64,000 bases of DNA from Nitrospirota bacterium (GCA_016207885.1 JACQZE010000014.1:25724-89723); one strand, 5' to 3'; shown: positions 30,515-64,000, counted from the first letter of the stretch. The notes: generated by a model not told the origin, from the sequence alone. A program made the numbers and translations.

Positions 30515-31117
30515 ATGGCTGTAAAAGTTCTGATCGTTGATGATGATGTTGCTCTTGCTACCCAGCTCAAATGGTTTTTGCCGAAAAAATATGTGTCTGT
30601 ACTTGCGCATACTGCTGAAGATGCCCTCGCCTTTTTCTGTAATAATGGCATTGACATAGTTCTGCTGGATCTCGGGCTTCCTCCATATGAGAACACGCCT
30701 GAGGTAGGCCTTAAGCTTCTTAATGATATGCTGGCTGCGAAGCCAGGTATAAAGATAGTTGTTGTGACAGGCCAGAAGGAGAGGAACGTGGCTGTAAAGG
30801 CGATATCCCAGGGGGCGTTTGATTATCTCATGAAACCGGTTGGAGAGAGCAAGCTTGTTGATTCTTTGAAAAGAGCTGAGTTTTTTGCTGATATAGAGAG
30901 TGATATACCTGCTGAAGAAAAGTCGATCAAGATAAATCCGCAGAGCCTTAATGAGGGCTTCGAGACGCTTAAGGAGGACATGAAGAAACATATAATCATT
31001 GAAGCTCTGCAGAAGACTGAAAACAACGTATCAAAGACCGCCAGGCTCCTTGGACTGAGAAGAACATCCGTCTATTACTACATCAATAAGTATAATCTGA
31101 GAACCAGGGATCAATGA
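30515..31117 (+). CDS. Response regulator, PrsR-like receiver plus Fis-type HTH, without a sigma-54 AAA+ module
   Basis: 200 aa. The REC domain has QLKWFL...LLDLGLPP...IVVVTGQKERNVAVKAISQGAFDYLMKP, resembling PEP-CTERM-box regulators as I recall them. The C-terminal HTH is NVSKTARLLGLRRTSVYYYINKY, and no Walker/GAFTGA region lies between. Confidence 0.75.
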   Translation: MAVKVLIVDDDVALATQLKWFLPKKYVSVLAHTAEDALAFFCNNGIDIVLLDLGLPPYENTPEVGLKLLNDMLAAKPGIKIVVVTGQKERNVAVKAISQGAFDYLMKPVGESKLVDSLKRAEFFADIESDIPAEEKSIKINPQSLNEGFETLKEDMKKHIIIEALQKTENNVSKTARLLGLRRTSVYYYINKYNLRTRDQ

Positions 31118-33033
31118 AACCCCTTATCCTGTTTACGATTGCCTGCGCAGTCGGGCTGCTTTCGCTGATCGTAACACGGACGTACACGAAGAACAGGGCC
31201 GCAATCATTTTTTTCACTGCTGATATCGCTCTGCTTATCGCCATTTATTACTTCATGATCAATTTGTTCTATATCTTTGCATATCTTGTGCTGCTCTTTC
31301 TCTTTCTCTTTATCCTCTCAATTATGAGGGTCACTTCAAAAAACAGTTCTTTTCTGATCAAGGATTCTTTGATCTCTCCGGATACGAGACGTTCCAGTTC
31401 CTCATCGGTTCGTGAAGGGATCAATGCTGCTATCAAATATGCGTCTTTCGGGCATTTGGCGCTGTCTTCTATTCTTGTGTCTGTCTTTATGCTCCCTGAG
31501 ATATATCACTCTATCGCCATTACCGCCGGAGTCGGCATGGCGTTTTTCTCTCTGATCAATCTCAGCCTGGTCCGTCAGAGAAGAAATCTGCTGGCGTATG
31601 ACAAGGCCTTTCTTCATGTGCTGTATATCAAGGTCATTGTCCTTGCATTGTCAATGAACCCTTTCTTTCTCTGGAACTATTCTTTTGTTGCTCCTTTGTC
31701 TTCGCTGCTTGTCATAGCAGCCGGTTACGGGGTGCTTTTTAAAGGGGAACTTTTCATCTTCAGGGTCAGGGCCTCCGCGGATATGTTATGGAAGGCGCTG
31801 CTCCTCATCAGCCTTATTATCTACGGCGTTATTCTTGTTTATCTTGACCGCTACTCTCCACAGGATGCGTTCGCGTTTTATATCAGGATATTCCTGGTAT
31901 CGGCATTCATTATTATTTCAGGGACGCTGTTTTACAGCCGTGAGGCAAGGCTTAAGGTCAAGTTCTTTATCTTACGCCATTTATATGTCAGCAGATATAA
32001 CCTCCTTGAGCTGCTGACCCGAATATTCTCACTGTACCAGAAGAGCAATGAAAGCATGAACTTCTTTATTAAAGAGGTGATGAATTATTTCTTTGAGAAT
32101 TATCCGTTTTCCTGCATAACGTTCATGTTTTCAGCTAAAGATAATAAGATTGAAGAAAAGATAGGCGAGCAGGGAGAGGGAAGCTTTCCTCTCAGGTTTA
32201 GAGATGAAACGAGTACCGCTAAGATCGAGATCGTTTTTTACAGCAAAGTGATCTTTGATGAAGACGACAGGATGAATCTCAGGCTTATTGCTGAACTTCT
32301 ATTCCGGATGACATATGACATGTACCTTACCCGCAGCAAAGTCTTCAGGGAGAAACTGGAGATAGCCGAGAGGCTTAAGCTCTTTCTCATCCATGACCTG
32401 AAGAACATATGCCATACGCTTAATATGCTTGAGAAGAACATATCAAGGGTGCAGCCCTCGGAGGCCGAAGAGTTTCTTAATGATTTTCGCCTTACAGTGC
32501 CCCATCTGGTCAAAAGGGCTGAGAAGATACTAAATACCATCGGTATATTGAGAGAGGGGAATAATCCCACTATATTTTCATTGAAGGATGTAATCGATGA
32601 GATACTCAAGCTCTTTCATAAGAAGCAGATCTTTATAACAAATTTTGACGGTGATGACAGGATATATGCCGACAGGGCGGCAGTAATGGTCGCTCTTGAG
32701 AATATCCTGCGGAACGCGCATGATAAATCTTTTGAAGACGCCCGGCTTGAGATAAGCATACATGGCAGCAGGGTTGATGAGAATTATGTCCTCACAATAT
32801 GTGATGACGGCATTCCCATGCCGGAAGAGGTTGCCGGAAGGATATTTGAACCCTTCTTTACGACCAAGAAAGGCGGCATAGGGGTGGGGCTTTATCAGAC
32901 AAAGGAATTTATTGTATCACAGCACGGAACTGTGGAAGTGCAAAACTCGCCGTCAGGCGTATGTTTTATTATCAAACTTCCTGTGGGACAGCATGATCTT
33001 TTTCATTCAGATGTAAATAATTTAGACAGTTGA
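31114..33033 (+). CDS. Polytopic sensor histidine kinase, PrsK-like
   Basis: 639 aa with about 300 aa of multiple TM helices, a central domain, an H-box (LFLIHDLKNICHTL), and an ATP-binding region (CDDGIPMP...FFTTKKGGIGVGLY). It overlaps the regulator by 4 bp. Confidence 0.75.
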   Translation: MKPLILFTIACAVGLLSLIVTRTYTKNRAAIIFFTADIALLIAIYYFMINLFYIFAYLVLLFLFLFILSIMRVTSKNSSFLIKDSLISPDTRRSSSSSVREGINAAIKYASFGHLALSSILVSVFMLPEIYHSIAITAGVGMAFFSLINLSLVRQRRNLLAYDKAFLHVLYIKVIVLALSMNPFFLWNYSFVAPLSSLLVIAAGYGVLFKGELFIFRVRASADMLWKALLLISLIIYGVILVYLDRYSPQDAFAFYIRIFLVSAFIIISGTLFYSREARLKVKFFILRHLYVSRYNLLELLTRIFSLYQKSNESMNFFIKEVMNYFFENYPFSCITFMFSAKDNKIEEKIGEQGEGSFPLRFRDETSTAKIEIVFYSKVIFDEDDRMNLRLIAELLFRMTYDMYLTRSKVFREKLEIAERLKLFLIHDLKNICHTLNMLEKNISRVQPSEAEEFLNDFRLTVPHLVKRAEKILNTIGILREGNNPTIFSLKDVIDEILKLFHKKQIFITNFDGDDRIYADRAAVMVALENILRNAHDKSFEDARLEISIHGSRVDENYVLTICDDGIPMPEEVAGRIFEPFFTTKKGGIGVGLYQTKEFIVSQHGTVEVQNSPSGVCFIIKLPVGQHDLFHSDVNNLDS

Positions 33034-33034
33034 C
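33022..33034 (+). promoter_or_regulatory. TTAG-N4-TTGAC promoter-proximal motif, copy 1 (ttagacagttgac)
   Basis: The motif overlaps the kinase stop codon. TTGAC at 33030-33034 is followed at 17-18 nt by TATCAT (33053-33058), upstream of the 33128 gene. Confidence 0.5.
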
Positions 33035-33127: not shown

Positions 33128-33760
33128 ATGATATGTGACAGCAGGAACAGGAAAAAATCAGGGGTTAGCATAATATTTATTGTTATTTCGATCACAGCGG
33201 TATGTCTTGCCATTTTTGCCTTCTTTGCCGGCGGCAAGTTAATGGCTGACATGCATGCAAAGAATGTTGTTCAATGGTGCAGGAAGTGGGAGTCAGCCGA
33301 GCTGACCTACTATTTTAAACGTGATAAACTTGCCGGTGATAAAAACGGCAACGGCATTATTGCTGATGAAGGCGGCCCGGGGTCGCCTGTAATGGAGCTT
33401 GTCGGATCCAAAGTTATCTCTGAATCCATGAAGAAGATCGAGGAAGGTGATTCCATATTTTATATAAATATAGGATTCAATACCGTTAAAAACAGGAAGA
33501 GAAATGTATTTGTCATATGCCCTTCTGCAAAATGTGACAGGACGCTTAACAAGGACGAGGCTGCAATGATGGTGAAGATAGACAAGCTGATGGATGGCGA
33601 GGCTATCGCTTCAGAGGGGAATTTAAAGGGAGCTACAGGTGTTACCCTGGTTTCAGAGGGGGATACAGTGACTGATGTCAGGGAGGCGGCGGCATCAGCA
33701 GACTGGAACGGATCATCATTAATAGGAGCTGTTTATTATTTTGAGGATTCCGGCAAGTGA
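33128..33760 (+). CDS. Pilin-like paralogue with a degenerate N-terminus (generic TM anchor, no G-F-x-x-x-E motif)
   Basis: 210 aa. The body aligns by eye with 34748, 35540 and 36279 (GDKNGNGIIADEGG; KRNVFVICPSAKCD; KIDKLMDGEA; AVYYFE). The N-terminus is KKSGVSIIFIVISITAV, without Glu at +5. Confidence 0.6.
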   Translation: MICDSRNRKKSGVSIIFIVISITAVCLAIFAFFAGGKLMADMHAKNVVQWCRKWESAELTYYFKRDKLAGDKNGNGIIADEGGPGSPVMELVGSKVISESMKKIEEGDSIFYINIGFNTVKNRKRNVFVICPSAKCDRTLNKDEAAMMVKIDKLMDGEAIASEGNLKGATGVTLVSEGDTVTDVREAAASADWNGSSLIGAVYYFEDSGK

Positions 33761-33892: not shown

Positions 33893-34531
33893 ATGTTATC
33901 TATTTTTAAACTGAATAAGAAACAGGGCTTTTCTTTAGTTGAGCTTTCAATTGTCCTGGTCATAATAGGCCTGCTTATCGCCGCGCTTGTCAAGGGCAAG
34001 GCTGTGCTCGAGAATGCGAGGATCAAAAGGGTCATAGGAGATGTCGAGACCATCGTTTCCGCCTATAATACATACTATGACCTCTACAGCGCTTATCCCG
34101 GAGATGACCGGTTCGCAAGCGGAAGATGGCCTACTCTTGTTGTGAGTGGTGATGCAGACGCTTTGATCGAGGGCGCAAATTGTAACATTGGCCCGGCAGA
34201 CGGGCAGGAGTGCAATGAGGCGTGGCAGGAATTAAGGGCGGCGCTTATGGTGCAGGGAGACCCGCTTGCTACAGGTGCGTCTGTTCTGCCTACGCATACT
34301 CTTGGCGGTATAATATGGATATGGAATAGTTCGAGTGACGGAGCCGGTATGGCTGAATTCGGCATAAGCGGGAACAGGAATTACATAGGTGTTACAAATT
34401 TAAGGAGCGAGGTCGCTGAAGTAATAGATAACAAATTTGATGATGGTGTCTTTGATTCAGGTAGCGTGCGCGGCAGCGCTGATTACAGTATAGATCCCGA
34501 AGCTGTTGTGGAGATATATTACGCGTTATAG
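33893..34531 (+). CDS. Type IV prepilin-like protein (candidate major subunit)
   Basis: 212 aa with the class III signal MLSIFKLNKKQG|FSLVELSIVLVIIGLLIAALV (Gly-1, Phe+1, Glu+5) and a C-terminal Cys pair. Confidence 0.78.
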   Translation: MLSIFKLNKKQGFSLVELSIVLVIIGLLIAALVKGKAVLENARIKRVIGDVETIVSAYNTYYDLYSAYPGDDRFASGRWPTLVVSGDADALIEGANCNIGPADGQECNEAWQELRAALMVQGDPLATGASVLPTHTLGGIIWIWNSSSDGAGMAEFGISGNRNYIGVTNLRSEVAEVIDNKFDDGVFDSGSVRGSADYSIDPEAVVEIYYAL

Positions 34532-35461: not shown

Positions 35462-35464
35462 ATT

Positions 35465-35477
35465 TTAACTGCTTGAC
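35465..35477 (+). promoter_or_regulatory. Weaker TTAG-N4-TTGAC-like motif (ttaactgcttgac) with a TATAAT -10
   Basis: TTGACT (35473-35478), a 16-nt spacer, then TATAAT (35495-35500), upstream of the 35540 pilin. Confidence 0.5.
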
Positions 35478-35539
35478 TTTATATCATTTAATGCTATAAT
35501 TATTTTATTCAATATTATTTGTTAATAGGGCGGTAAATA

Positions 35540-36190
35540 ATGAAACTCAGGGAAGAAAGAGGTTTTACACTTATTGAACTTGCTCTTATTCTTATCATAA
35601 TCGGCATAATTATCAGCCTTGTGCTAAAAGGGCAGGATGTAATTGAGTCTTCCCGCATGAAGAAGTTTGAGACAGATGTAAGGCACTGGAGGACATCAGC
35701 CTGGCTTTTTTTAGAGAGAAAGGGTGCTTTCCCAGGTGATGGGGATAGCAATGGCATCATAGGTGATGAGGCAACGGCAGTACTCGTACCAGGGTCAACT
35801 GTCATACTGAATGCTAATCTAATAAATCCGCCAAAGGCGAACCCGGTTAGTGCCGGCAGTTTGAATTTCTGGCTCTACTGGGGAACTAATGACGCTTCTG
35901 GAACCTTAGGGCGCAAGAGAAATGTCATGGTTATCTGCGCTAACAATGATTGCACCCAGCCTTTTGAAGGGGATGACTCTGGCGGTAATATGAAGTATGT
36001 TGAGTTCCTTGATACGGTTATTGACGGTGCGAGAGACGGCACAGTTGGCCTTATAAGGGCGGTATCTACTTCTCCGTTACTGGAAGGTTCAGGTGATGAC
36101 AGGACTGTCAGGGAAGTTTCTGAGGCTGGTACAGCATGGACCTCAGGTTCGACAGTGGCATTAGTCTATTATATAGACAAGAATTTGTAA
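35540..36190 (+). CDS. Type IV prepilin-like protein, small paralogue family
   Basis: 216 aa with MKLREERG|FTLIELALILIIIGIII. Family motifs are GDGDSNGIIGDE, KRNVMVICANNDCTQ, FLDTVIDG and a C-terminal ALVYYID. Confidence 0.8.
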   Translation: MKLREERGFTLIELALILIIIGIIISLVLKGQDVIESSRMKKFETDVRHWRTSAWLFLERKGAFPGDGDSNGIIGDEATAVLVPGSTVILNANLINPPKANPVSAGSLNFWLYWGTNDASGTLGRKRNVMVICANNDCTQPFEGDDSGGNMKYVEFLDTVIDGARDGTVGLIRAVSTSPLLEGSGDDRTVREVSEAGTAWTSGSTVALVYYIDKNL

Positions 36191-36228: not shown

Positions 36229-36257
36229 AGGGGCGATGGATCGCCCCTATTTTTTTG
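36229..36257 (+). terminator. Intrinsic terminator after the 35540 pilin
   Basis: aggggcga / tcgcccct stem, loop tgga, followed by T7. Confidence 0.8.
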
Positions 36258-36278: not shown

Positions 36279-36899
36279 ATGAAAGACCAAAAGGGATTCG
36301 GCCTGGCCGAGATCGCGATTATCATTACGATCGTAGTTATACTCTCATTTTCATTACTTAAGGGATGTGAGATGATAGAAGACGCCAAGCTTAAGAAGTT
36401 TGAGAAGAGCGTTCTTAAATGGAAAGAGAGCGCAAAAGATTATTACAATATTAAAGGCCATCTTCCGGGTGATACAAATTCTAATCTTATAATAGGGGAT
36501 GAAGGATTTCCGTCACCGGGAACTACTCTGATACAGAAGGCGGATTTTATCAACAACCCGCCGTCAAACCCCATGGCGGTTGGCAGCCTGAGTTTTTGGG
36601 TCTATTACGGCAATGACGGCAATACAGTCAGGCCGAGAAATGTCCTTGTCATATGCTCTGATAATGCCTGTATGAAAACTTTTGCCAGCAATGAGCTGAA
36701 ATATGTTCAATCGTTTGATACAGTGATCGACGGCGAAGCAGACGGCAAAGCAGGTGAGGTAAAGGCCTTGTCTGCGGTCACAGTCTATGGTTCAGGAGAT
36801 AACAGGGTTGTCACTCATCTGGATACTGCTAATGCAGTTGAGTGGGGTTCAAACAACGGCGTAGCGCTCGTATACTATTTAAAGGGGCGTTTAAAATAG
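36279..36899 (+). CDS. Type IV prepilin-like protein, small paralogue family (G|FGLAE variant)
   Basis: 206 aa with MKDQKG|FGLAEIAIIITIVVIL. Family motifs are GDTNSNLIIGDE, RNVLVICSDNACMK, SFDTVIDGEA and a C-terminal ALVYYLKG. The first O-OTase-like gene follows after 18 nt. Confidence 0.75.
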   Translation: MKDQKGFGLAEIAIIITIVVILSFSLLKGCEMIEDAKLKKFEKSVLKWKESAKDYYNIKGHLPGDTNSNLIIGDEGFPSPGTTLIQKADFINNPPSNPMAVGSLSFWVYYGNDGNTVRPRNVLVICSDNACMKTFASNELKYVQSFDTVIDGEADGKAGEVKALSAVTVYGSGDNRVVTHLDTANAVEWGSNNGVALVYYLKGRLK

Positions 36900-36917: not shown

Positions 36918-38687
36918 ATGAATAAAGACACCTTTAAAAATCTCTGCCTCGTCGTATTATATCTTCTTTTCCTGGCCATTATACATATTAATATCAGGAA
37001 CCTCGGCGGTTCTGTTGTTAATCCGGTTGCTTACATGGTATGGATGGCGGTTTCAGCTGTTGTCCTTCTTGCTTTGATGCAGGCCTTTCTTCAGGATGTC
37101 GGCATTCTTGTCATTCCTAAAATAACGGCCTATATTCTGCTCTTCGCAGCTCTCTTTCTTTTGCCGGCCATATTCAATCCGATAACTGACGCGCACTCCT
37201 TTATCTTTAAGAACCTGGGACTGGCAGGCGGCATTATATTTTTTATCTCCCTGCATCAGTTTAATTTCTCTGATGAGCAGAAGGAAAAACTTTTATATGT
37301 GATATTTTTGTCGGCTGTTATTGAGGCAGGCATCGGACTTGCGCAGTATCTTGCTCCGTGGGCAAGGATACCGATGCTGGCATTCTCTACAACAGGTGAT
37401 GTTTTTGGTAATTTTCAGCACCAGAATGTGCTTGCCTCTTTTCTTGCCACCTCAATCGTTATCTCTCTCTATGCGCTGACAGCGCCTTTATTCCGCAGAG
37501 CTGACAGATGGGGTAAGGCGGGATTTTTTATTGCCGTTACAGTCATTTCCTTTATCCTGTTTATCACAGGGTCAAGGGCAGGGCTCATAGGATTGTTTCT
37601 GGGTTGCGTAACGCTATTAATAACGAGGTACAGGCTTTTCAAGACAGCGCCTCTCTATCTTTTAATATGGACGCTTGCAGTGACTGCAGGGCTGGGACTT
37701 AACCTTTCTTCCGAGAAATATCTTTATCAAAAAGAGCGCGGCGTCTTCTCTGCCGCAAAGAAACTTCAGACCGCGTCAGAGAGCTTTATGGCTGAAAAAG
37801 CAGGCGACCCGAGAATACTGATGTACAGGGTATCACTTGAGATGATCAAAGACAGTCCTGTTTTCGGGCATGGGCCTGGCGGGTTCAAGAGCAAGTATGT
37901 ATTTTTCAGGCGGCAGTTTACCGAAAATATGAGCAGCCGCCCGAGCCTGAATACATTTACATATTATCCGCACAGCGAAACACTCTTTATCCTCATAGAA
38001 TCAGGTTTGGCAGGAGGCTTGGGACTGATAATAATATCTGCGGCCTTTCTGATGTATATATTCAGGCTTGGCATGGAGAGAGGCGGCTTGTATGCCTCTC
38101 TTTTATTGCCGTTAACTTTTCACTCTCAGGTCGAATTTCCGTTCTATCAATCTGCTGTTCATTGGGCGCTCTTTTTGTTTTTATGCTATCTTGTGTCTTC
38201 TCACTTCGTGCGTGAAGTGAATTTTAAGATTGAACGCCGGCTGCGGATCGCGTTGTTAACTGCATCTGTATGCGTATTCATGCTTACAAATATTTTTATG
38301 GCAAGGACGCTGAGCGCGAATATCAAACTGACTGAGTATTACAGGCTTTTGACTTCAGAGGGTGTGAGCCGCATGAAGCTTGCTGAACCTGCGCTGAATA
38401 ATCTGTATCTTGGCCAGTCTGCCCAGAGGATGCTGATGGATTTCGGGCTTGGGATGGCGCTCGGTAAGGATGATAAAAAATTCCTGAATGAGTTTGTCCA
38501 ATGGGCTGAGGAGGAGAGAACCCGCTTCCCGCATTTTATGCTTTACGAAGGCGAGGCAAGGGCTTTGTCCGCGCTTGAAAAAAAAGATGAGGCATTTAAA
38601 CTCCTTGATGAGGGGCTGAGTCTTTATCCTGACAATGAAACATTACTAAATGCGAAGAAAGAATTGGAGTTAACGAGCGGGCTTTAA
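36918..38687 (+). CDS. Wzy_C / PglL / TfpO-like O-antigen-ligase-family membrane protein with a TPR-like C-terminal domain (copy 1)
   Basis: 589 aa, about 10-12 TM helices. GSRAGLIG and YYPHSETLFILIESGLAGGLGL match the O-antigen ligase signature region. A soluble C-terminal helical-repeat tail follows. Confidence 0.7.
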   Translation: MNKDTFKNLCLVVLYLLFLAIIHINIRNLGGSVVNPVAYMVWMAVSAVVLLALMQAFLQDVGILVIPKITAYILLFAALFLLPAIFNPITDAHSFIFKNLGLAGGIIFFISLHQFNFSDEQKEKLLYVIFLSAVIEAGIGLAQYLAPWARIPMLAFSTTGDVFGNFQHQNVLASFLATSIVISLYALTAPLFRRADRWGKAGFFIAVTVISFILFITGSRAGLIGLFLGCVTLLITRYRLFKTAPLYLLIWTLAVTAGLGLNLSSEKYLYQKERGVFSAAKKLQTASESFMAEKAGDPRILMYRVSLEMIKDSPVFGHGPGGFKSKYVFFRRQFTENMSSRPSLNTFTYYPHSETLFILIESGLAGGLGLIIISAAFLMYIFRLGMERGGLYASLLLPLTFHSQVEFPFYQSAVHWALFLFLCYLVSSHFVREVNFKIERRLRIALLTASVCVFMLTNIFMARTLSANIKLTEYYRLLTSEGVSRMKLAEPALNNLYLGQSAQRMLMDFGLGMALGKDDKKFLNEFVQWAEEERTRFPHFMLYEGEARALSALEKKDEAFKLLDEGLSLYPDNETLLNAKKELELTSGL

Positions 38688-43780: not shown

Positions 43781-43848
43781 TCTGTCAGACGGCTGATATT
43801 GAGATTTAAAGACTTTAATATGCGATGTCATTTTTCAGGAGGTGTATT

Positions 43849-45375: not shown

Positions 45376-45423
45376 TCTTTGTGTTAACGGCATATAAAGG
45401 ACAAGAGTTTTAAGAGGTATTTC

Positions 45424-47301: not shown

Positions 47302-47313
47302 ATACTCCCCTTA

Positions 47314-47694: not shown

Positions 47695-47762
47695 GATTCT
47701 GCTAAAATATAGACATGCAACAGGCCACACAGGCCGGTTAATGTATTATTCCTTGAGGAACC

Positions 47763-49043: not shown

Positions 49044-49109
49044 TGTTTTGTTGTTTTCGGTATTGCCTGCCCTGTAATAAAAAGTAAAATAATCCCGGAT
49101 GTCTAATTC

Positions 49110-49122
49110 TTAGACAATTGCA
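49110..49122 (+). promoter_or_regulatory. TTAG-N4-TTG motif, copy 4 (attcttagacaattgca)
   Basis: Shares ATTCTTAGACA.TTG with copy 2. TATTAT (49141-49146) lies 18 nt downstream, about 250 nt upstream of P5. Confidence 0.45.
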
Positions 49123-49311
49123 CCCTTCCTATTAATCAGTTATTATGAAGTTGTAAATAGGGTTATTTCACCCATGAATATAAGGGATAATACTGAGATA
49201 TTTGATCTGAGATAAACAAAAAGCCCATTGGTTTATAAAAGAAACATATATTTTAAAGCAGGTTAGATTATTTTGCTGAAACATATTTCAAAATAAGCAA
49301 ATTGCTTTATT

Positions 49312-49327
49312 TGGTATGGGATTTGCA
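49312..49327 (+). promoter_or_regulatory. Candidate sigma-54 (-24/-12) promoter upstream of P5
   Basis: TGGTATGGGATTTGCA matches TGGCACG-N4-TTGCA in spacing, with GG and GC both in place. It ends 69 nt before the P5 ATG. Confidence 0.35.
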
Positions 49328-49395
49328 TATCTGTTAATAACATAGTTGTTACATCAATAACAAATGACATTTGATAAGGTAAATAGGAGGTTATT

Positions 49396-53786: not shown

Positions 53787-53831
53787 CCTGCTTCAAATTC
53801 CGGGAAGTGCTGTTATAATAACATTCATATT

Positions 53832-55331: not shown

Positions 55332-55378
55332 GTAGCAGGAAGAATTACTAATCTGAAAAATAGATCTGCCGTTTTTCT

Positions 55379-56914
55379 ATGAACAAAGATAAAAAAAACG
55401 ACTTTATTATTATTTCCTCTTTATTCCTGCTGGTGATCATTGTCAGGCTCCCGTCTTTCTTTTATTCAGTCTTTGACTGGGACGAAAGCACATTTATACT
55501 TATGGGGCAGAGCATCCTTGACGGCAATCTGCCGTATGTTGATGCATGGGTGATGAAACCACCCGGAGCATTCTATATTTACTCACTTTTCATCTATTTT
55601 TTTGGCAAGACTATTTTTGCGGTACGGCTGGGAGGAATACTCTTTATTTTTCTTGCTTCCGTACTCTTATATATGGCCGGGGAGGCGCTTTACAATAAGG
55701 CTTCAGGGGTTATTGCCGCGGTATTTCTTATAGTCTTTGTCAGCGCAAGAAAATGGGGATTGAGCACTATGATAGAGCACCTGATGCTTGTGCCTATCTC
55801 CCTTGTATTGTTTATCGTTTTAACCAGAAAACCTGATAATAAAATGGCCCTTGTGACCGGCCTGATACTTGGTACAGGGATACTGATGAGGCAGAATATG
55901 GCCTTTGACAGCGTGGCTGTTCTGGCAGTGTTTTTAACGGGCGTTACAATGCCGGGCACAGATATTTCAGGGCGTCTAAAAAGATGCGCCTTTCTTGTAT
56001 CAGGAATCGCTATCCCCCTGTCTGCAATGGTCTTTTATTACGCTTTAAACGGGGAACTTCAGCTTTTTTTAAATACCAATATATCATCGGTAGTTGCGCA
56101 TGTCAGCGAGAACGTATTGATATCCAGAAAGTTAAGATTGCTGTTTGTAAATATCAAGCATGAGTTTACAGGCGGCTATATGCTTTTCTGGATCTTTTTC
56201 GCGAACGCAATTTTGTTCCTGTTGTTTTCTCCGGGGAGCGGGGTTCTCAAGAGGCCTGCGGCTGCTATGCTGATAATCTTTTCTGCTCAGATATTTTCGA
56301 TCTTTTATACCGGGACTAATTTTGGTTATCACTATCTTATTATGGTCATACCTGTAACAGCTTTAGTCTGCGGGATCTCCATACCCTTGTGGCTCTCAAG
56401 CGAAGCGGGAAAAAGAAAGGCAGTAAAATTTGCTGCTGTTTTTCTTATTGCATCCGGACTTGTCTTGCCATTGCATAAAGAAATTTACCCTCTTTACAGT
56501 GATGTTTTTTCAAAAGTCATGCTTCGTGAACCGTTACAGGATGATACCTGCTATGAGATCGCTGAATATCTCAAAAAAGAGTATGTCAAAGGTAAATATA
56601 TTTATATGCTTAACAACTGTCATATAGTCTATTTTTTGACAGACAGTAAATACCCAACAAGGTATATTCATCCAACCGACATCATAAAATATGATTATAT
56701 GCTGAAGGCGGTAGACGGCACTGAAGCCACGGATGAGAAAGAACTGCAGAAGATACTCTTGAAAAATCCGGAATTTATCGTCTATAAGGATGGTAGCTGG
56801 CCGACTCCGGATGACAGCTTCAGGGAGATGCTTTTTATTGAGCTGGAGAAACAATACAGGTTGGTAAAGGTGATCAGTGATGATCATTCTATTTACAAGA
56901 GGAAGCGTTCTTAA
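55379..56914 (+). CDS. GT-C fold glycosyltransferase, ArnT/PMT_2 (GT39/GT83)-like
   Basis: 511 aa. The first loop reads FDWDESTFILMGQSILDGNLPYVDAWVMKPPG, typical of ArnT/PMT_2-type enzymes. It has multiple TM helices and a C-terminal soluble domain. Confidence 0.6.
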   Translation: MNKDKKNDFIIISSLFLLVIIVRLPSFFYSVFDWDESTFILMGQSILDGNLPYVDAWVMKPPGAFYIYSLFIYFFGKTIFAVRLGGILFIFLASVLLYMAGEALYNKASGVIAAVFLIVFVSARKWGLSTMIEHLMLVPISLVLFIVLTRKPDNKMALVTGLILGTGILMRQNMAFDSVAVLAVFLTGVTMPGTDISGRLKRCAFLVSGIAIPLSAMVFYYALNGELQLFLNTNISSVVAHVSENVLISRKLRLLFVNIKHEFTGGYMLFWIFFANAILFLLFSPGSGVLKRPAAAMLIIFSAQIFSIFYTGTNFGYHYLIMVIPVTALVCGISIPLWLSSEAGKRKAVKFAAVFLIASGLVLPLHKEIYPLYSDVFSKVMLREPLQDDTCYEIAEYLKKEYVKGKYIYMLNNCHIVYFLTDSKYPTRYIHPTDIIKYDYMLKAVDGTEATDEKELQKILLKNPEFIVYKDGSWPTPDDSFREMLFIELEKQYRLVKVISDDHSIYKRKRS

Positions 56915-57016: not shown

Positions 57017-57029
57017 TTAGCCTCTTGAC
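57017..57029 (+). promoter_or_regulatory. Weaker TTAG-N4-TTGAC motif (ttagcctcttgac) upstream of the assembly operon
   Basis: TTGACA (57025-57030), a 17-nt spacer, then CATAAT (57048-57053), about 140 nt upstream of the 57192 gene. Confidence 0.4.
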
Positions 57030-57191
57030 ATACTTCATTATTTAAGACATAATTTTTGTAATTAACACAATAACCTATATATATATTTAGTATCATATAG
57101 AGAAGTTATTTGTTTTGTCATTAAATATGAATTATAATTTTAATTAATTGCTGCGGATATTATTTATTAGTTCTTCTTTCTGAGGGGATTT

Positions 57192-58541
57192 ATGGGAAAA
57201 AATGTGATAGTCAGCTTTGAGGGAGACATTGTCAAGGTTGCCTATATCTCAACAAAGGGTAAGCAGATTGTTGTTAATGACGCCCTCACATGCAAGAAAG
57301 AGGATTTTGACAGCTTTCTCGAAAAAGAGAAGGCTAAAGAGTTTATAGTTGTAAATAACTTCAAAGACGCATTTCAGGACATATTTCTTATCCCGCCTGT
57401 AAAAGCCAAGTACGCGAAGAGCCTTATCGAATCCGAGATCAAACAGAAATCCCCTTTTGAGGACTTCACCTATACCTACAGGGTTGTTGGTGAAAAGCTT
57501 GAAGGGAACAGAAAGATGCAGGAAATATCGGTCTATGTTGTCAAGACTGAAGATGTAAAGAATATTACAGAGAGATTTATCGAGAAGGGTAAGCTGGTCA
57601 AGGCTGTTTTCCCTCATATCTATGCGGTTGCATCTGAAATGCATTTTGATGATGAGAGCGTTTTATGTGTATCTGAATCCGGACAGAGCAGGGTGCTTTT
57701 TTTAATAAAGAACGGCAAAATAGAGTTTGTCAGGTCTGTGCAGGCAAGTGAAAATGGTATAAGTGATGCTGATATACAGAGTATTAATGTAACCGTAAAC
57801 TACTGCAAACAGGTTCTTAAGGCCAGTCCCTCTTATATAGTCCTGGTAGGTAATCTTTGCGGAAATTATAATGCGACTACGCAGATAGATATCCCCATTG
57901 TATGCCCTCTTAAACCCAAAAACCTGAAAGTTCAAAATGATATCTATCTTGATTTTATTTTTGCCATATCAGCACGCAGCGCTTTAAAAGAAGCAAACGT
58001 CTCCCCTAAAGACTATAAGTCGTTTTATTCAACATGGAAATTATTCCAGTATTCTACTGTCGCCTTCATCATTATTTCACTCGCAGGCGGGCTCTATGCA
58101 AGTTACGGGATTTTTAATGTTTTGAGTTCAAGAGGGAAAATGAGCTCTTTAAAAAAAGAGATCACAGGCATGGATAAAAATACTTTAACCATGTATAACA
58201 AGAGAAAAACTGAATTTGAAAGCTATAAGGGATTTATTGAATCAAGCAGCAAGACTGCCGCAATGCCTGTAATTAAAAATTTTTTAACCTCCTTTGCTGA
58301 TGCAAATACGAAGAACGTAAGTATCGGCACCATTACTATGAAGATAAACGGCGACACACTGAATGTAAGCATTTCAGGGCTTGTAAATGAAGCTGAAGAT
58401 GATGGAAAAGAGGGTTTTCAGAAATACACCTATTATCAGGAGTTCATAGACTCGGTAACAAAGTTAAACGGTATCTCAATAATAAAACATGAGCTGACCC
58501 CCAAGCAGAGGGATTTCATAATTGAGCTGGAGTCTAAATGA
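57192..58541 (+). CDS. Fused PilM-PilN-like (MshI-like) pilus assembly protein
   Basis: 449 aa: a cytoplasmic region of about 290 aa, one TM (YSTVAFIIISLAGGLYASYGIF), and a periplasmic tail. It is first in an I-J-K-L(secretin) order. Confidence 0.5.
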   Translation: MGKNVIVSFEGDIVKVAYISTKGKQIVVNDALTCKKEDFDSFLEKEKAKEFIVVNNFKDAFQDIFLIPPVKAKYAKSLIESEIKQKSPFEDFTYTYRVVGEKLEGNRKMQEISVYVVKTEDVKNITERFIEKGKLVKAVFPHIYAVASEMHFDDESVLCVSESGQSRVLFLIKNGKIEFVRSVQASENGISDADIQSINVTVNYCKQVLKASPSYIVLVGNLCGNYNATTQIDIPIVCPLKPKNLKVQNDIYLDFIFAISARSALKEANVSPKDYKSFYSTWKLFQYSTVAFIIISLAGGLYASYGIFNVLSSRGKMSSLKKEITGMDKNTLTMYNKRKTEFESYKGFIESSSKTAAMPVIKNFLTSFADANTKNVSIGTITMKINGDTLNVSISGLVNEAEDDGKEGFQKYTYYQEFIDSVTKLNGISIIKHELTPKQRDFIIELESK

Positions 58542-59092
58542 TGTTTTACAATGAATTAAAAAAGGCGGTATTGAAGCACCTCATCGGAGGAATAGCATTT
58601 GCTGTTGTTCTTTTCGTGATCATATTTTCCGGCAGATATAGCGAGAGCCTGGTGAGCACAGTTAAACAGTTTGAGAAACAAAAGGAAAACTATAAGAAGA
58701 TGAGCGAGTCTGTGGCTGAGCTTGAGAAGGTAATGGGCCAGATAGACGCAATGGTACCGGCAGACTATTATGATAAGGGTAACCGTGAATTTATTCTTCT
58801 TGCCATCGGCAGTATAAAATCCAAACTGCGATATGCAGAAGTGAAGATAGAAGACTTCAGGGAAGAAGGCGGTGAAGTTTCAATGCCTATGGAGATTCAT
58901 TTTCCTGTCGACGACTATACGGTCATGACAGAAAGTATAGCGTATATTCAGTCCTTCAAGTTTCCTTATTTTATTTTTGATGGTATAGATGTTGCGAGAT
59001 CAAAAGACAACTCTGAGATAACCTGTAATATTAAGGGTTCAATGAGGATGCCTGCCGGAAGGTTAAGTAAACGTTCGGGTGAGAGTGAATAA
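58538..59092 (+). CDS. PilO/MshJ-like assembly protein
   Basis: 184 aa with an N-terminal TM, a coiled-coil segment and a globular tail. It overlaps the upstream gene by 4 bp. Confidence 0.45.
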   Translation: MMFYNELKKAVLKHLIGGIAFAVVLFVIIFSGRYSESLVSTVKQFEKQKENYKKMSESVAELEKVMGQIDAMVPADYYDKGNREFILLAIGSIKSKLRYAEVKIEDFREEGGEVSMPMEIHFPVDDYTVMTESIAYIQSFKFPYFIFDGIDVARSKDNSEITCNIKGSMRMPAGRLSKRSGESE

Positions 59093-59576
59093 TATGGGAT
59101 TTACCTTGAAATTAAAACTGCTGGCTCTTTTGCCTTTTATTTTAATAATTGCTGCGGGCTATGCGGCGTATAAGATCGATGTTGAGTATAAAATGACTCC
59201 GGAAGATAAGGAGATACTCGGGTTTGAGGTCACAAAAGTGAGCCTTCCTGAAAGAAAGGTAGTTACAGACAAGACTTTGGCAATGCCTACCTTGATTGAG
59301 AAAGTCATGGGTTACAGGGAGGCCGTTCCATCTGAAGAGGACAAGAAGAAGGCTTCTGAGCAGGTTCAGCTTGTTGTTACGATGATCATTGTCAGTGATA
59401 AAGGGAACATGGCAATAATAAACGGCACGGTGGTAAGGGAAGGGGATATCGTCGCCAATCAAACGATACTTCAGATAGAGGCCGACAAGATCTTAGTCGA
59501 ATATGCTTTAGCACCCGGGGATAAGGGCAAAACCAAGACTAACACTAAGGGGACAAAATGGGTAAATCTACTATGA
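59079..59576 (+). CDS. MshK/PilP/GspB-like small periplasmic assembly protein
   Basis: 165 aa with an N-terminal anchor and a C-terminal AIINGTVVREGDIV...ILQIEADKILVEY pattern, typical of this class. It lies immediately upstream of the secretin. Confidence 0.45.
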   Translation: MRVNNMGFTLKLKLLALLPFILIIAAGYAAYKIDVEYKMTPEDKEILGFEVTKVSLPERKVVTDKTLAMPTLIEKVMGYREAVPSEEDKKKASEQVQLVVTMIIVSDKGNMAIINGTVVREGDIVANQTILQIEADKILVEYALAPGDKGKTKTNTKGTKWVNLL

Positions 59577-61204
59577 AAACAATAAAAAGGGTGAAAATTA
59601 TGTATCGGCTTTTTTCCATGTTTCTAACATTGTTTTTATTAGCCTTTGCTGTTACAGGCCTTATAAATGAGGCATCAGCGGCGCAGAATGATGCTGCATC
59701 TGATGAAGCATCAGGCGTTCTTGTTTCAGAAGTTCCTGATGTGCGTATTGAAAAGGCGGACACAGTAAAGTTTGAGAAGGAAACCTCAAGGTCAAGCCTT
59801 GCGTTTACCCCGGTCACTGAGGAACTTTTGCCGCTTAAGACGAGGATCATTTCCATTTCAGTGAGAAATGCGCCGCTTAAAGATGTTCTTTTCGCAGTCG
59901 GTGAAAACACCGGGTTGAATATAATTATGGAAACCGGTGTAAACCCTGAACTGCCCATGACCATAACACTGAAGGAAGTTGCCGCTGATGAGGCTCTTGA
60001 TATTATATTCTCATCCCTTGATTATTTTTATGATCTGGAAGGCAATGTTCTCATAGTGAGAGTTATGGCCACGAGGATGTTTGAATTCGGCCATCCCAGT
60101 ATCTCACAGGAATATTCATCTGATGTCGGCGGAGATCTCTTCGGCGCGACTGAGGACATAAGCAACATAAAAGGCGGTGTTAAACAAAATATCAAAGCGG
60201 ATGGTGTAGCGTTAAACCTGTGGGATTCTCTGGAGTCAACGCTTAAAGGTATTGTTGGAACCGGTATGATTCCCGGTACGATTGATATAAATAGAATGTC
60301 AGGGACGATACTTGTAACCGCCACAAAGAAGAATATGATAAAAGTTGATAATTATCTTACTAAACTTAAGGAAGTCCTGGGCAGGCGCGTTCTTGTTGAG
60401 GCAAGGATAGTGGAGGTTACACTGGCAGATAATCTTAAGTACGGAATTAATTGGGCATTTCTTGATAATCTCAAGGGAGTCGGGCAGGTTGTTTCAGGCG
60501 CCATGAACTTTAATAACAAATTGGTTTCTGCTACAATTGACCCTTTAACAGGCGAAGCAGATTTCTCTTTGGATCCGGCACAAGATTCCGGTTTCTTTGT
60601 GGCTACATTAGGAAATGATTTTGCTGCTATTATTAGCGCTCTTGATGAGCAGGGTGACACGACAGTGCTGTCAAATCCGAGGCTCGGCATAATGAATGGA
60701 CAGACAGCCCTTCTGAATGTCGGAAGGAAGACCGATTATGTAAGCGAAGTTGATGCAACTACAACTGAGACTACTACTACTCCCCCAACTACAAAAACCA
60801 CATTTGATGTTACTACAAAGAGTATATTATCAGGAGTTATGCTGGGTATAGTCCCTAATATCAATGAGAATGGTGAGGTGACATTGACTATAACTCCGAT
60901 AGTTTCTGATCTTGTAGAATTACTTGAACAGCCTTTTGGCAGTACAAATACGGGTAGTGAATTTACAATATCTTTACCAGTTATCGACCTTAAGGAACTA
61001 AGCACAGTTGTCAAGGTCAGGGATGGCGAGATGATAGTGCTTGGCGGGCATATAGACAGAACCGAAGGAGTGGAGGATAAGCAGGTGCCGTTTCTCGGGG
61101 ATATTCCTTACTTGGGCTACCTGTTTAAACAGCATGCAAAGACCCATGAGAGCAAGGAGCTTGTGATACTTCTTAAAGCAACTGTGGATAAGGTAGGTTT
61201 GTAA
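59558..61204 (+). CDS. Secretin (MshL/PilQ type)
   Basis: 548 aa with a signal peptide. The secretin core is LSNPRLGIMNGQTALLNVG ... VPFLGDIPYLGYLFK ... ELVILLKATV. The true start is probably ATG 59573 or 59600. Confidence 0.85.
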   Translation: MGKSTMKTIKRVKIMYRLFSMFLTLFLLAFAVTGLINEASAAQNDAASDEASGVLVSEVPDVRIEKADTVKFEKETSRSSLAFTPVTEELLPLKTRIISISVRNAPLKDVLFAVGENTGLNIIMETGVNPELPMTITLKEVAADEALDIIFSSLDYFYDLEGNVLIVRVMATRMFEFGHPSISQEYSSDVGGDLFGATEDISNIKGGVKQNIKADGVALNLWDSLESTLKGIVGTGMIPGTIDINRMSGTILVTATKKNMIKVDNYLTKLKEVLGRRVLVEARIVEVTLADNLKYGINWAFLDNLKGVGQVVSGAMNFNNKLVSATIDPLTGEADFSLDPAQDSGFFVATLGNDFAAIISALDEQGDTTVLSNPRLGIMNGQTALLNVGRKTDYVSEVDATTTETTTTPPTTKTTFDVTTKSILSGVMLGIVPNINENGEVTLTITPIVSDLVELLEQPFGSTNTGSEFTISLPVIDLKELSTVVKVRDGEMIVLGGHIDRTEGVEDKQVPFLGDIPYLGYLFKQHAKTHESKELVILLKATVDKVGL

Positions 61205-61216
61205 AACGACTATAAT

Positions 61217-62869: not shown

Positions 62870-62969
62870 TTAACATAAGATGCGATTATTTTTTTCTCTT
62901 TTTGAAGCCAGACAAGCTGTTTTCAATATCATCAGAATTTATTATTTCTTCTAAAGGCCTAAAGATAAT

Positions 62970-64000
62970 ATGCCGCCATTAAGACTTGGAGAACTTTTAC
63001 AGCAGAAAGGTCTCGTTAAGGAATCACATGTTAAGATAGCGCTGGCAGAGCAGGCTATTACCGGCCATCTTATCGGGCTTATACTCGTAAAGCTGAGCTT
63101 TGTCTCTTCGAAAGATATTACTCAGACCCTTGCTGAACAGGCCGGGATGACCTTTCTGGATCTTACCCAGTACAATATACCTGAGGATGTTTTGCGCCTT
63201 GTGCCTCGGGACGTTGCCTCCAAGCTTGGCTTTGTGCCTGTCAAAATTGAAGATGGCGTGATAACTATAGGTATCTCAGCTTCTGAAAATTTGCGCGCTG
63301 TTGACGCGGCTACAAGGATCGGGGGACACCCTCCCAAGATATTGATGGTTGACGGCTCTATAGTTGAGGCGACACTTGAGAAGGCATTTTATTTTCTTGA
63401 GAACCCCATACTTGAGGGCATTGAAAAGATCGTCGAGAGCGTTAAGACCGGTGAACTTACCGGCACAAAAGTGTCTCAACTTACAGACTTTCTGGTAAAA
63501 GATGCCATCAGAAGAAAATGTACTGATATTCATGTAACGCCTACTCCTGAAACCGTGCATGTTTTTTTTCGTATAGACGGTGTGTTGCAACAGGCGCACT
63601 GCCTGCCTAAAATTGTGCATAACGGCATTATTTCCCGGATAAAGATATTGTCTAAGCTTGATATAGCTGAAACAAGGGTGCCCCAGGACGGCTCCTTCTC
63701 ATTCACATTTCTTAACTCAAGATATGATATGCGTGTTTCCACAATGCCTACCATTTACGGCGAGAACCTTGTCATAAGGATACTGGGTAGCGGCGGCGCG
63801 ATACTCAGGCTGGCTTCACTTGGTTTTGATAAAGAGGATACGGAAAAGCTGAGGCGCTTATTTTTAAAGCCATATGGAATGATACTTATATGCGGGGCAA
63901 CCGGAAGCGGTAAGACCACTACGCTATATGCCGCTTTAAGGGAGATAGACCTGATAGAGAAGAATGTGCTTACTGTTGAAGACCCTGTAGAATACAGGCT
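62970..64000 (+). CDS. GspE/PilB/MshE-family secretion ATPase, paralogue 2 (3' end beyond the window)
   Basis: My translation from ATG 62970 reads MPPLRLGELLQQKGLVKESHVKIALAEQAITGHLIGLILVKLSFVSS... It is colinear with paralogue 1, with Walker A GATGSGKTT and a canonical EDPVEY. It is open to the window end, so it is absent from the ORF track. Confidence 0.85.
   Translation, partial: MPPLRLGELLQQKGLVKESHVKIALAEQAITGHLIGLILVKLSFVSSKDITQTLAEQAGMTFLDLTQYNIPEDVLRLVPRDVASKLGFVPVKIEDGVITIGISASENLRAVDAATRIGGHPPKILMVDGSIVEATLEKAFYFLENPILEGIEKIVESVKTGELTGTKVSQLTDFLVKDAIRRKCTDIHVTPTPETVHVFFRIDGVLQQAHCLPKIVHNGIISRIKILSKLDIAETRVPQDGSFSFTFLNSRYDMRVSTMPTIYGENLVIRILGSGGAILRLASLGFDKEDTEKLRRLFLKPYGMILICGATGSGKTTTLYAALREIDLIEKNVLTVEDPVEYR

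Follow-up and report, generated by a model that had tools for sequence, protein, structure and literature searches.

Here we describe a gene cluster of approximately 37 kb from an uncultured bacterium of the Thermodesulfovibrionia (Nitrospirota), analysed in a stretch of 64,000 nucleotides (nt) of genome GCA_016207885.1 (JACQZE010000014.1:25724-89723; hereafter the window), where it runs from position 30515 to the window end. The cluster is an elaborate version of a known machine, the MSH-type adhesive pilus, and not a new kind of system. We consider it probable that it encodes a pilus of a widespread, uncharacterised MSH-type clade, whose pilins and modification enzymes have been expanded in one Thermodesulfovibrionia lineage. 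From 30515 onwards, all gene-like open reading frames (ORFs) of at least 150 amino acids (aa) lie on the + strand, with intergenic gaps of -19 to 461 nt. An earlier annotation made from the sequence alone (the original prediction) had listed a two-component system, five small and five large pilin-like genes with three Wzy_C-type membrane enzymes between them, a spermidine-synthase-like protein, two GT-C-like proteins, assembly genes and two ATPases. Profile searches of the predicted window proteins against Pfam and NCBIfam recovered most of the listed families, so that this inventory can be taken as correct, with every listed gene found on the + strand where it had been placed, subject to four corrections.

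The class of the machine is read most directly from the assembly genes, which occupy the downstream part of the locus as follows:

57025–57053 (+): near-consensus sigma-70 promoter-like site, TTGACA-17-CATAAT, in the 277-nt gap before the assembly genes
57192–58541 (+): bitopic protein at the MshI / PilM-N / GspL position, 449 aa, with one transmembrane (TM) segment at residues 290-308
58538–59092 (+): protein at the MshJ / PilO position, 184 aa, with an N-terminal TM segment; placed by position, size and topology, and conserved in relatives
59079–59576 (+): protein at the MshK position, 165 aa, with an N-terminal TM segment; T2SSB at 21.5 bits, below cut-off; conserved in relatives
59558–61204 (+): outer-membrane secretin of MshL type; Secretin 127 bits, TIGR02519
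61217–62869 (+): MshE-type ATPase 1; T2SSE 370 bits, MshEN 52.6 bits; motifs PQFG and GEIVD
62970–64000 (+): MshE-type ATPase 2, with canonical motifs; T2SSE, MshEN 45.6 bits; 343 of ~548 aa, the window ending inside the gene

The secretin scored 264.1 bits against the MshL equivalog model TIGR02519 (cut-off 250.2), while its matches to GspD (155.8 bits) and PilQ (140.7 bits) both stayed below their cut-offs. Both ATPases combine T2SSE with the MshEN domain (PF05157, cut-off 23.1 bits) and exceed the cut-off of 38 bits for the cyclic di-GMP (c-di-GMP) motif NF053729, at 52.4 bits for ATPase-1 and 47.7 bits for ATPase-2. With MshL, MshEN and NF053729 all above cut-off, the predicted MSH-type type IV filament and its two tandem MshE-type ATPases are supported. 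The further claim of MshI/J/K/L-like genes held for MshL, whose equivalog model was passed; the labels of the other three come only from gene order, size and single-TM topology. The protein at the MshI position matched T2SSL at E 0.06 in three of nine orthologues and is conserved beside the secretin in about 20 related loci.

The downstream end of the locus was inferred from relatives, because the window stops inside ATPase-2. Two related contigs from metagenome-assembled genomes (MAGs), L071 (GCA_016213935.1) and L072 (GCA_003358065.1), also carry tandem ATPases and run past ATPase-2 into a T2SSF platform gene, a gene for a 496-499-aa AAA_22 plus YfiO/tetratricopeptide repeat (TPR) protein resembling MshM/MshN, and a divergent TPR gene, beyond which lie unrelated aromatic-amino-acid genes and no prepilin peptidase. 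A T2SSF protein of 404-406 aa directly follows the ATPase gene or genes in L004, L020, L071 and L072 and is itself followed by the AAA_22 protein, whose best NCBIfam match is TIGR03015, below cut-off. Platform and AAA_22 genes of this kind also occur in more distant relatives that possess one ATPase. The expectation that a platform gene lies downstream was thus borne out in the two close relatives L071 and L072. The prepilin peptidase, presumed to lie there too, is absent from both relatives' loci, with none found among the annotated window ORFs or after the MshM/N-like gene of either relative.

In the MSHA pilus of Vibrio cholerae and Shewanella oneidensis, as here, an MshL-type secretin, an MshEN ATPase and three small inner-membrane proteins preceding the secretin are encoded in a single locus, together with a platform and an MshM/MshN-like AAA_22/TPR protein (seen here in relatives) and no prepilin peptidase. 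The Vibrio MSHA genes are ordered I-J-K-L-M-N-E-G-F, whereas the order here is I-J-K-L-E-E-G-M/N, with G-M/N taken from relatives and two ATPases in tandem. The pilin families also differ (small pilins of ~210 aa and modular ones of 420-625 aa, with no match to MshA/B/C/D/O/P/Q models), and, unlike MSHA loci, the locus also encodes GT-C and three Wzy_C enzymes as well as a two-component system. In the TXSScan definition of the MSH class, mshA, mshE, mshG and mshL, along with mshM, are mandatory, all MSH loci are devoid of a prepilin peptidase, and outside the Gammaproteobacteria the class was found in Epsilonproteobacteria and Chrysiogenetes only (Denise et al. 2019, PMC6668835), so that a Nitrospirota host is unreported in that survey.

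Relatives of the locus were sought by scanning 185,579 species-representative genomes with the N-terminal module of the large pilins, and the window proteins were compared with the resulting loci by tblastn. The scan returned 67 loci in Nitrospirota/Thermodesulfovibrionia, Thermodesulfobacteriota, Desulfobacterota, Aquificota and Sulfurimonas/Helicobacteraceae (Campylobacterota), and cultured carriers of a simpler core include Thermodesulfobacterium thermophilum DSM 1276 and T. hveragerdense DSM 12571. The recurring core comprises one or two small pilins, one to three large pilins, three small assembly genes, the secretin and a single ATPase, sometimes with a regulator and kinase. Against this core, the inflated pilin repertoire of the original prediction is evident, with five small and five large pilins here. 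Wzy_C genes occur in two of the 67 loci, both in Aquificota and both between pilin genes, while the 941-aa spermidine-synthase-like protein, both GT-C proteins and the second ATPase occur in none. Judged from these comparisons, the five plus five pilins, the three Wzy_C enzymes, the 941-aa protein with its two GT-C neighbours and the second ATPase constitute a lineage-specific expansion.

The expanded architecture occurs beyond a single genome. L069 (GCA_030646035.1, a Thermodesulfovibrionia MAG) is gene-for-gene syntenic with the window, at 64-90% aa identity, between the kinase and the 941-aa protein, with which the compared stretch of its contig ends, and L074, a 39-kb Logan contig, shares the genes from Wzy_C through the five large pilins to the 941-aa protein. 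The L073/L071 architecture combines Wzy_C and tandem ATPases with three large pilins, of 416, 442 and 1086 aa, and lacks the GT-C block; because of this, the expansion of pilins and O-oligosaccharyltransferases (O-OTases) and the duplication of the ATPase are read, on comparative grounds, as predating the insertion of that block. Neither the clade nor the architecture turned up in a literature search; the original prediction, too, knew of no described system that combines these parts.

The small pilin-like genes and their accompanying expression signals, with a slash marking the class III signal junction, are the following:

33128–33760 (+): small pilin-like protein 1, 210 aa; hydrophobic N-terminus, G/VSIIF, Glu5 absent; no N_methyl match
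33893–34531 (+): small pilin-like protein 2, 212 aa, a separate subtype; canonical class III signal, N_methyl 29.6 bits
34718–35389 (+): small pilin 3, candidate major pilin; N_methyl 34.3 bits
35429–35456 (+): terminator-like hairpin with a 12-bp stem, 3' of small pilin 3
35473–35500 (+): near-consensus sigma-70 promoter, TTGACT-16-TGnTATAAT, 5' of small pilin 4
35540–36190 (+): small pilin 4, candidate major pilin; G/FTLIE; N_methyl 20.0 bits, just below the 21.2-bit cut-off
36229–36248 (+): terminator-like hairpin, 3' of small pilin 4
36279–36899 (+): small pilin 5; G/FGLAE; ends 18 nt before the first Wzy_C gene

These five proteins measure 206-223 aa. They had been called paralogues of one another, which is true of four along their full length (28-48% identity), whereas what small pilin 2 has in common with them is confined to the N-terminal helix, over its first ~70 aa. 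Small pilin 1 is 28-29% identical to its full-length paralogues, small pilins 3-5, and its Phe5 recurs in the L069 orthologue; small pilins 3 and 4 are 48% identical. Both subtypes, 'sp2-type' and 'sp3-type', occur together in related loci (for example L008, L018, L042 and L047). The true start of small pilin 3 is probably the ATG at 34766, given that the L069 orthologue begins MREQKG/F. By inspection, eight of the ten pilin-like proteins of the locus carry Gly-1, a hydrophobic +1 residue (Phe+1) and Glu+5 ahead of a hydrophobic helix of ~20 aa. The prediction of ten class III signals therefore stands for these eight and has to be qualified for small pilin 1 (Phe5) and large pilin 3 (Gln5), both without Glu5. 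The Pfam N_methyl model exceeds its cut-off of 21.2 bits in five of the ten, with a sixth at 20.0 bits.

Small pilins 3 and 4 are, from consensus scans, the best candidates for the shaft or major pilin, because each is followed by a terminator-like hairpin and pilin 4 is also preceded by a near-consensus promoter, a pattern such as would be expected for highly expressed major pilins. In the PDB, profiles of both pilin families match PilE, PilA, Shewanella MshA and GspG over their N-terminal parts. For the small-pilin profile, the match to Shewanella MshA (9lab) reached E 3.6e-4, over the N-terminal region only, and was weaker than that to PilE.

The five large pilin-like genes span 42518-50850 and enclose one further small ORF:

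42518–43780 (+): large pilin 1, 420 aa; N_methyl 29.4 bits
43825–45375 (+): large pilin 2, 516 aa; G/FNIVE; Asn/Ser/Gly/Glu repeat insert at residues 154-237
45424–47301 (+): large pilin 3, 625 aa, candidate tip subunit; G/IALIQ, no Glu5; weak Cu-binding_MopE motif match
47446–47694 (+): conserved 82-aa ORF with two TM segments, within the large-pilin block and missed by the original prediction
47763–49043 (+): large pilin 4, 426 aa; N_methyl 26.1 bits and alignment
49396–50850 (+): large pilin 5, 484 aa; N_methyl 25.2 bits; short Asn/Ser repeat and Asp-rich C-terminus

Alignment of the five (420-625 aa) supports the predicted common N-terminal module, of ~190 aa. Their modular nature is also apparent in an AlphaFold model of large pilin 1 (27-sequence alignment, predicted local distance difference test score (pLDDT) 85.8), in which a 52-residue helix (residues 11-62) and an alpha/beta head extending to ~190 are followed by a beta-sandwich (195-330) and a small Cys-rich C-terminal domain. 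In Foldseek searches the sandwich matched immunoglobulin (Ig)-like adhesin domains (SiiE, SraP and SrpA) with low TM-scores; with the whole model as query, the beta-sandwich alone was recognised and no specific homologue of the pilin head was returned. The top PDB sequence match of the large-pilin profile is PilA5, at the N-terminus only. The absence of Glu5 marks the extreme-tip subunit in GspK of type II secretion systems (T2SS) and in similar subunits. In large pilin 3 this absence is conserved, the orthologues in L069, L074 and L073 having Gln or Tyr at position 5, and the protein bears an additional C-terminal extension rich in Cys and Asp. Orthologues of the 82-aa ORF occupy the same place in L069 and L074 and lie upstream of the pilins in L073.

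DNA tandem repeats (period 18-60) at 44317-44522 and 50476-50531 encode the low-complexity Asn/Ser/Gly/Glu inserts of large pilins 2 and 5. The insert of pilin 2 sits inside the shared N-terminal module, and its length could vary between strains. Counts of N-glycosylation sequons in the pilins were unremarkable, with no N-x-S/T in the Asn-rich repeats, and were not used as evidence. In relatives the large-pilin family reaches greater sizes, with a member of 1086 aa in L071 (701-3961) and one in L072 (1-3960) of which at least 1319 aa are visible, its contig being truncated, and whose called product has 1780 aa; both giants hold repeated segments resembling the C-terminal extension of large pilin 3.

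CofB and TcpB of type IVb pili and GspK of T2SS are large minor pilins. The large pilins of the locus share with modular pilins (CofB/TcpB and PilB/PilC of S. sanguinis) the grafting of extra modules C-terminally onto an N-terminal pilin module, and large pilin 3 resembles GspK in being without Glu5; they differ in that five paralogues stand in one locus, in that the modules are Ig-like beta-sandwich and Cys-rich domains, and in that the head-module family is confined to Nitrospirota, Aquificota, Thermodesulfobacteriota and Campylobacterota. In S. sanguinis PilB and PilC, the modules are of adhesin type (PMC8179133, PMC9934059).

Between the small and the large pilin genes lie three tandem genes for polytopic membrane enzymes:

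36918–38687 (+): putative O-OTase 1; Wzy_C 69.2, Wzy_C_2 68.0 and PglL_A 23.7 bits (PglL_A cut-off 25)
38689–40464 (+): putative O-OTase 2; Wzy_C 77.9, Wzy_C_2 33.5 and PglL_A 26.8 bits, the last above the cut-off of 25
40464–42266 (+): Wzy_C-family enzyme 3, more divergent; Wzy_C 71.8 and Wzy_C_2 43.5 bits

The prediction of three tandem Wzy_C/PglL-like enzymes is supported. All three proteins (589-600 aa) score 69-78 bits against Wzy_C (cut-off 31.7 bits), exceed the Wzy_C_2 cut-off and contain H[NSQ]x9Gxx[GTY], the ligase motif holding the catalytic His. In enzyme 1, which has ~12 TM segments and a weak match to WaaL (7TPG), the motif reads HSETLFILIESGLAG at residue 352; it begins at residue 346 in enzyme 2, which is 44% identical to enzyme 1, and at residue 341 in enzyme 3, which shows 28-30% identity to the other two and whose relatives in Aquificota (L042 and L045) are likewise enclosed by pilin genes. 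The Wzy_C genes are flanked by pilin genes on both sides in the window and likewise in L069, L073, L074, L042 and L045. Pilin O-glycosylation is the most likely role of these enzymes, because the window, L069, L073 and L074, all of them Thermodesulfovibrionia contigs, keep them between pilin genes, as do Aquificota independently. Every pilin O-OTase known, namely PglL, PglS, TfpO and TfpM, has a Wzy_C domain with an essential His (PMC9829042). The enzymes of the locus resemble those of Neisseria, Pseudomonas, Acinetobacter and Moraxella in being polytopic Wzy_C proteins encoded beside pilin genes, with the conserved catalytic His and matches to PglL_A and Wzy_C_2. They are unlike them in forming three tandem divergent copies (28-44% identity) in place of one and in having a C-terminal TPR-like extension, and, unlike TfpO substrates, the pilins here lack a C-terminal Ser/Thr acceptor.

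A second block of membrane proteins, between the large pilins and the assembly genes, consists of:

50961–53786 (+): polytopic protein, 941 aa; spermidine-synthase-like domain, TPR at the C-terminus; Spermine_synth 37.2 bits (cut-off 22.9), TPR families
53832–55331 (+): 499-aa glycosyltransferase C (GT-C)-fold membrane protein of an undescribed family; AlphaFold pLDDT 94.2, pTM 0.92
55379–56914 (+): PMT_2/ArnT-like GT-C protein, 511 aa; PMT_2 48.0 bits (cut-off 26.1), 11 TM segments

The Spermine_synth and TPR matches agree with the predicted polytopic spermidine-synthase-like/TPR protein, which has ~15 TM segments and scores 96.6 bits against PRK03612, below cut-off. An orthologue 86% identical to it stands in the same place in L069, and a 941-aa Spermine_synth/TPR protein is called at that place in L074 too. 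The two GT-C-like proteins are also upheld, one by membership of the PMT_2 family and the other by its predicted fold. For the latter, the 499-aa protein, searches for Pfam, NCBIfam and PDB sequence matches were negative, as were a PDB profile search and Pfam applied to 46 family members, while Foldseek with the model returned STT3 first (6s7t_A, E 5e-10, TMq 0.72), followed by DPY19, ALG12, PglB, AglB, ArnT and AftD, the GT-C matches ranging from E 5e-10 to 7e-6 and TMq from 0.57 to 0.72. The family is large (2875 representative clusters at 50% identity, 780 of them with E<1e-30), and D47, H51, H87, R146, E259, R315 and a DWD[DL]F[PT] motif are invariant in it; D47, E259, R315 and the motif may resemble oligosaccharyltransferase active-site elements. 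Members of the family are common in Chloroflexota, Acidobacteriota, Planctomycetota and Aquificota.

By analogy, GT-C enzymes encoded in a pilin locus suggest that pilins are glycosylated in the periplasm, with a polyprenyl-phosphate sugar as donor. TfpW, which arabinosylates the group IV pilins of Pseudomonas (bioRxiv 10.1101/2020.04.19.049825), is by description likewise a polytopic GT-C-fold enzyme encoded within a pilin locus. The two enzymes here differ from TfpW in that one is PMT_2/ArnT-like and the other nearest to STT3, DPY19 and PglB folds, in that they are not linked to pili in other genomes, and in that no D-Araf biosynthesis genes were seen in the locus.

The locus opens with two regulatory genes, overlapping by 4 nt:

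30515–31117 (+): response regulator, 200 aa, with receiver (REC) and Fis-type HTH_8 domains; Response_reg 72.7 bits, HTH_8 40.6 bits
31114–33033 (+): polytopic histidine kinase, 639 aa; HATPase_c 64.4 bits; 8 predicted TM segments

This pair had been described as PrsK/PrsR-like, a description that does not hold. The best NCBIfam match of the regulator is indeed PrsR (of the TIGR02915/TIGR02916 pair) and that of the kinase is PrsK, over its C-terminal part, yet the scores (123.8 bits against an equivalog cut-off of 502.6, and 103.9 bits against 300) amount to a quarter to a third of the cut-offs, and the regulator (REC at residues 5-118, HTH_8 at 156-193, by Pfam) is without the central sigma-54 AAA+ domain. 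Nor can the label of a PEP-CTERM-type regulator pair be kept, since neither exosortase nor PEP-CTERM genes were found in the locus or among the 20 annotated ORFs upstream of it (between 1.7 and 30 kb of the window). What the pair has in common with PrsK/PrsR of XrtA/PEP-CTERM loci is the best-matching NCBIfam models of both proteins, the polytopic N-terminus of the kinase and the Fis-type HTH of the regulator; what separates them is scores 3-4-fold under the equivalog cut-offs, the missing AAA+ domain and the lack of an exosortase among those 20 upstream ORFs. Going by domain content, a polytopic kinase together with a regulator of ActR/RegA architecture is the more fitting description of the pair. 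Sigma-54 promoters upstream of the pilins were considered and rejected, with three matches against 5.1 expected. The kinase orthologue in L069 is 90% identical. The two-component pair is probably a genuine part of the pilus system, because homologous regulator/kinase pairs adjoin pilin genes in several related loci (L019, L054, L065 and L067).

Taken together, these components could work as follows. The two-component pair would control pilin transcription independently of sigma-54, and a prepilin peptidase encoded elsewhere in the genome would process the eight canonical prepilins. One or more small pilins would form the filament shaft, in which the large pilins may be minor subunits bearing Ig-like and Cys-rich adhesin modules, and the tip would be capped by the Glu5-less 625-aa pilin in the manner of GspK-type subunits. 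In the periplasm, the three Wzy_C/PglL-like enzymes would move lipid-linked glycans to pilins, to which the two GT-C enzymes might attach further sugars from polyprenyl-phosphate donors. Extension would be gated by c-di-GMP binding to MshEN, with the canonical ATPase-2 as the motor and the divergent ATPase-1 in a specialised or regulatory role. The net product would be alternative glycosylated adhesive filaments for attachment to surfaces or other cells, their diversity plausibly driven by substrate range and/or phage pressure.

A number of observations weigh against one or other part of this reading. As regards the machine, the proteins at the MshI, MshJ and MshK positions gave no significant sequence match in Pfam, NCBIfam, phmmer against the PDB, profiles of nine orthologues against the PDB, or Pfam searches with orthologues; no MshA-specific model matched the pilins, the library used containing no such model; the choice of major pilins comes solely from consensus promoter and terminator scans; and the platform, MshM and peptidase of this same genome lie outside the view of a window that ends within ATPase-2. 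As regards glycosylation, the Wzy_C family also takes in O-antigen ligases and polymerases, genes for sugar-nucleotide synthesis or lipid-carrier priming are absent from the locus, and none of the small pilins, with C-termini ...DSGK, ...YYAL, ...RGNN, ...DKNL and ...GRLK, ends in Ser or Thr as TfpO substrates do. As regards the GT-C block (50961-56914), relatives L071-L073 are without it, and its tie to pilin modification consists in its co-linear, tightly spaced position in this lineage alone, because the 499-aa and 941-aa families have no pilus neighbours elsewhere: the 499-aa family occurs in 80 other genomes without pilus genes nearby, and a pattern scan of the species-representative genomes for the 941-aa family retrieved one other homologue (Sericytochromatia), again with no pilus genes nearby. 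In the 80 loci (L075-L154), the matches to other genes of the cluster were chance hits to the two-component system, in three loci, with no other gene in common. A recurrent mobile pilin-modification cassette was accordingly rejected as an explanation, neither the 80 relatives of the 499-aa protein nor the one relative of the 941-aa protein having shared neighbours.

These points lead to the strongest of the alternatives, which we nevertheless regard as unlikely: that the machine is an MSH-type pilus in which the six membrane enzymes (O-antigen ligase or polymerase, lipid or glycan GT-Cs, and a polyamine-related enzyme) are general envelope enzymes merely embedded among its genes and do not modify pilins. 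Wzy_C is common to WaaL and Wzy, and the WaaL structure 7TPG is the sole PDB sequence match; no Wzy_C gene lies within 10 kb in 65 of the 67 core loci, the 499-aa family stands alone in its 80 genomes, which are mostly Chloroflexota, the sole retrieved relative of the 941-aa protein has no pilus neighbours, and L071-L073 show that the pilus occurs without the GT-C block. The arrangement of the genes speaks for involvement in the pilus, however, in that all six lie on the same strand with gaps of 1-110 nt, set between pilin and assembly genes and with small pilin 5 just 18 nt from the first of them; this arrangement is kept in L069 and L074, and Wzy_C genes stand beside pilins independently in Aquificota. 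In addition, PglL_A is above cut-off in enzyme 2, and three tandem ligases would be odd for one lipopolysaccharide pathway.

The two tandem ATPases are 59% identical and not equivalent. ATPase-2 orthologues (548 aa) are 81-92% identical, and 85-86% in L071 and L072; together with all single-copy orthologues examined, they have GEIRD and, with the exception of L004 (PQGG), PQDG. ATPase-1, at 71-80% identity between genomes, is less conserved than ATPase-2 (85-86%) and carries PQ(F/V)G and GEI(V/I)D in the three genomes with the tandem pair (the window; L071, 8261-9913; L072, 8243-9895). Because of these conserved motif departures and the lower conservation between genomes, the comparison points to sub- or neo-functionalisation of ATPase-1.

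The tandem ATPases also bear on another possibility, which we hold to be improbable, namely that the locus builds two or more filaments of different structure, each with its own ATPase: small pilins would make up a thin filament, and large modular pilins would be the repeating subunit of a thick one. A pair of non-equivalent ATPases conserved in at least three genomes, pilin classes of equal number (five and five) and the retention of Glu5 in four of the five large pilins, which could polymerise, would all suit separate filaments. Wide and narrow pili built from different pilins are made by Thermus thermophilus, and PilA5, the N-terminal PDB match of the large-pilin profile, is the pilin of its narrow pili. 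Single-ATPase relatives nonetheless possess both pilin classes, so that two motors are not needed, and the motif departures of ATPase-1 fit a regulatory role at least as well.

Least probable of all is a type II secretion-like or surface-display apparatus, in which a pseudopilus of small pilins would export or display the large 'pilins' as surface adhesins: although the best named NCBIfam matches of the small pilins are GspG and GspH (N-terminus only), the relatives' platform scores best against GspF (277.8 bits, below cut-off), the protein at the MshI position is faintly similar to T2SSL/GspL and the large proteins have adhesin-like Ig and Cys-rich modules, the secretin passes the MshL cut-off alone (264 bits against 156 for GspD), the ATPases have MshEN and score higher against PilB than GspE, neither GspC, GspM nor a GspH/I/J/K set was found, and the large proteins combine canonical class III signals with a pilin head and therefore appear built for insertion into a filament.

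A more novel combination can be entertained as a long shot: a pilus system of several filaments and glycoforms, with a second, thick, adhesin-studded filament in which large pilins are the repeating subunits, the 499-aa GT-C protein as a pilin oligosaccharyltransferase, and ATPase-1 as a c-di-GMP-sensing regulatory partner of ATPase-2 and not a motor. If true, the 499-aa protein would be the first member with an assigned function in a family whose homologues, numbering thousands, are uncharacterised.

Work on MSH-type pili has been confined almost entirely to Vibrio and Shewanella, and the locus and its 67 relatives form a distinct clade with its own pilin families, carried by phyla that are mostly anaerobes or thermophiles living attached to minerals or in biofilms. 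Current understanding is not overturned; the value of the locus lies in breadth and in testable leads. The expanded locus offers a natural experiment in equipping one machine with many pilins and in the diversification of glycosylation, through three O-OTase paralogues and the GT-C enzymes. It also bears on the division of labour between duplicated c-di-GMP-gated motors, and it supplies a genomic context for a big GT-C family of STT3-like fold that has no Pfam model.

On its upstream side the pilus locus begins directly after a tRNA gene, which the original prediction had omitted:

29952–30026 (-): tRNA-Val(CAC), with the ABC-F gene on one side and the response regulator gene of the pilus locus on the other; identified by Rfam

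tRNA genes are common insertion sites of islands. The G+C content shows no sharp change across the boundary between tRNA-Val and the pilus locus, and the Rfam scan of the window returned the tRNA only, with no c-di-GMP or other riboswitch. The genes upstream of the tRNA are unrelated to the pilus; among their products are an Rnf complex and a NiFe hydrogenase, as well as HD-GYP proteins, a PAS-GGDEF protein and the ABC-F protein. The PAS-GGDEF diguanylate cyclase gene (25975-27942, +) lies 2.5 kb upstream of the locus with its c-di-GMP-binding-type (MshEN) ATPases, and the two HD-GYP-type genes (HD_5) of the window are at 7374-8954 and 18713-19813. The segment 10313-12318 (+) holds an N6/N4 DNA methylase gene and, after it, an ORF of 300 aa that lacks a Pfam match, a possible restriction-modification pair unrelated to the pilus. 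The sole sizeable minus-strand gene of the window, at 19909-20808 (-), encodes a 299-aa protein with an Endostatin/DUF1554-type match, which is unusual in bacteria.

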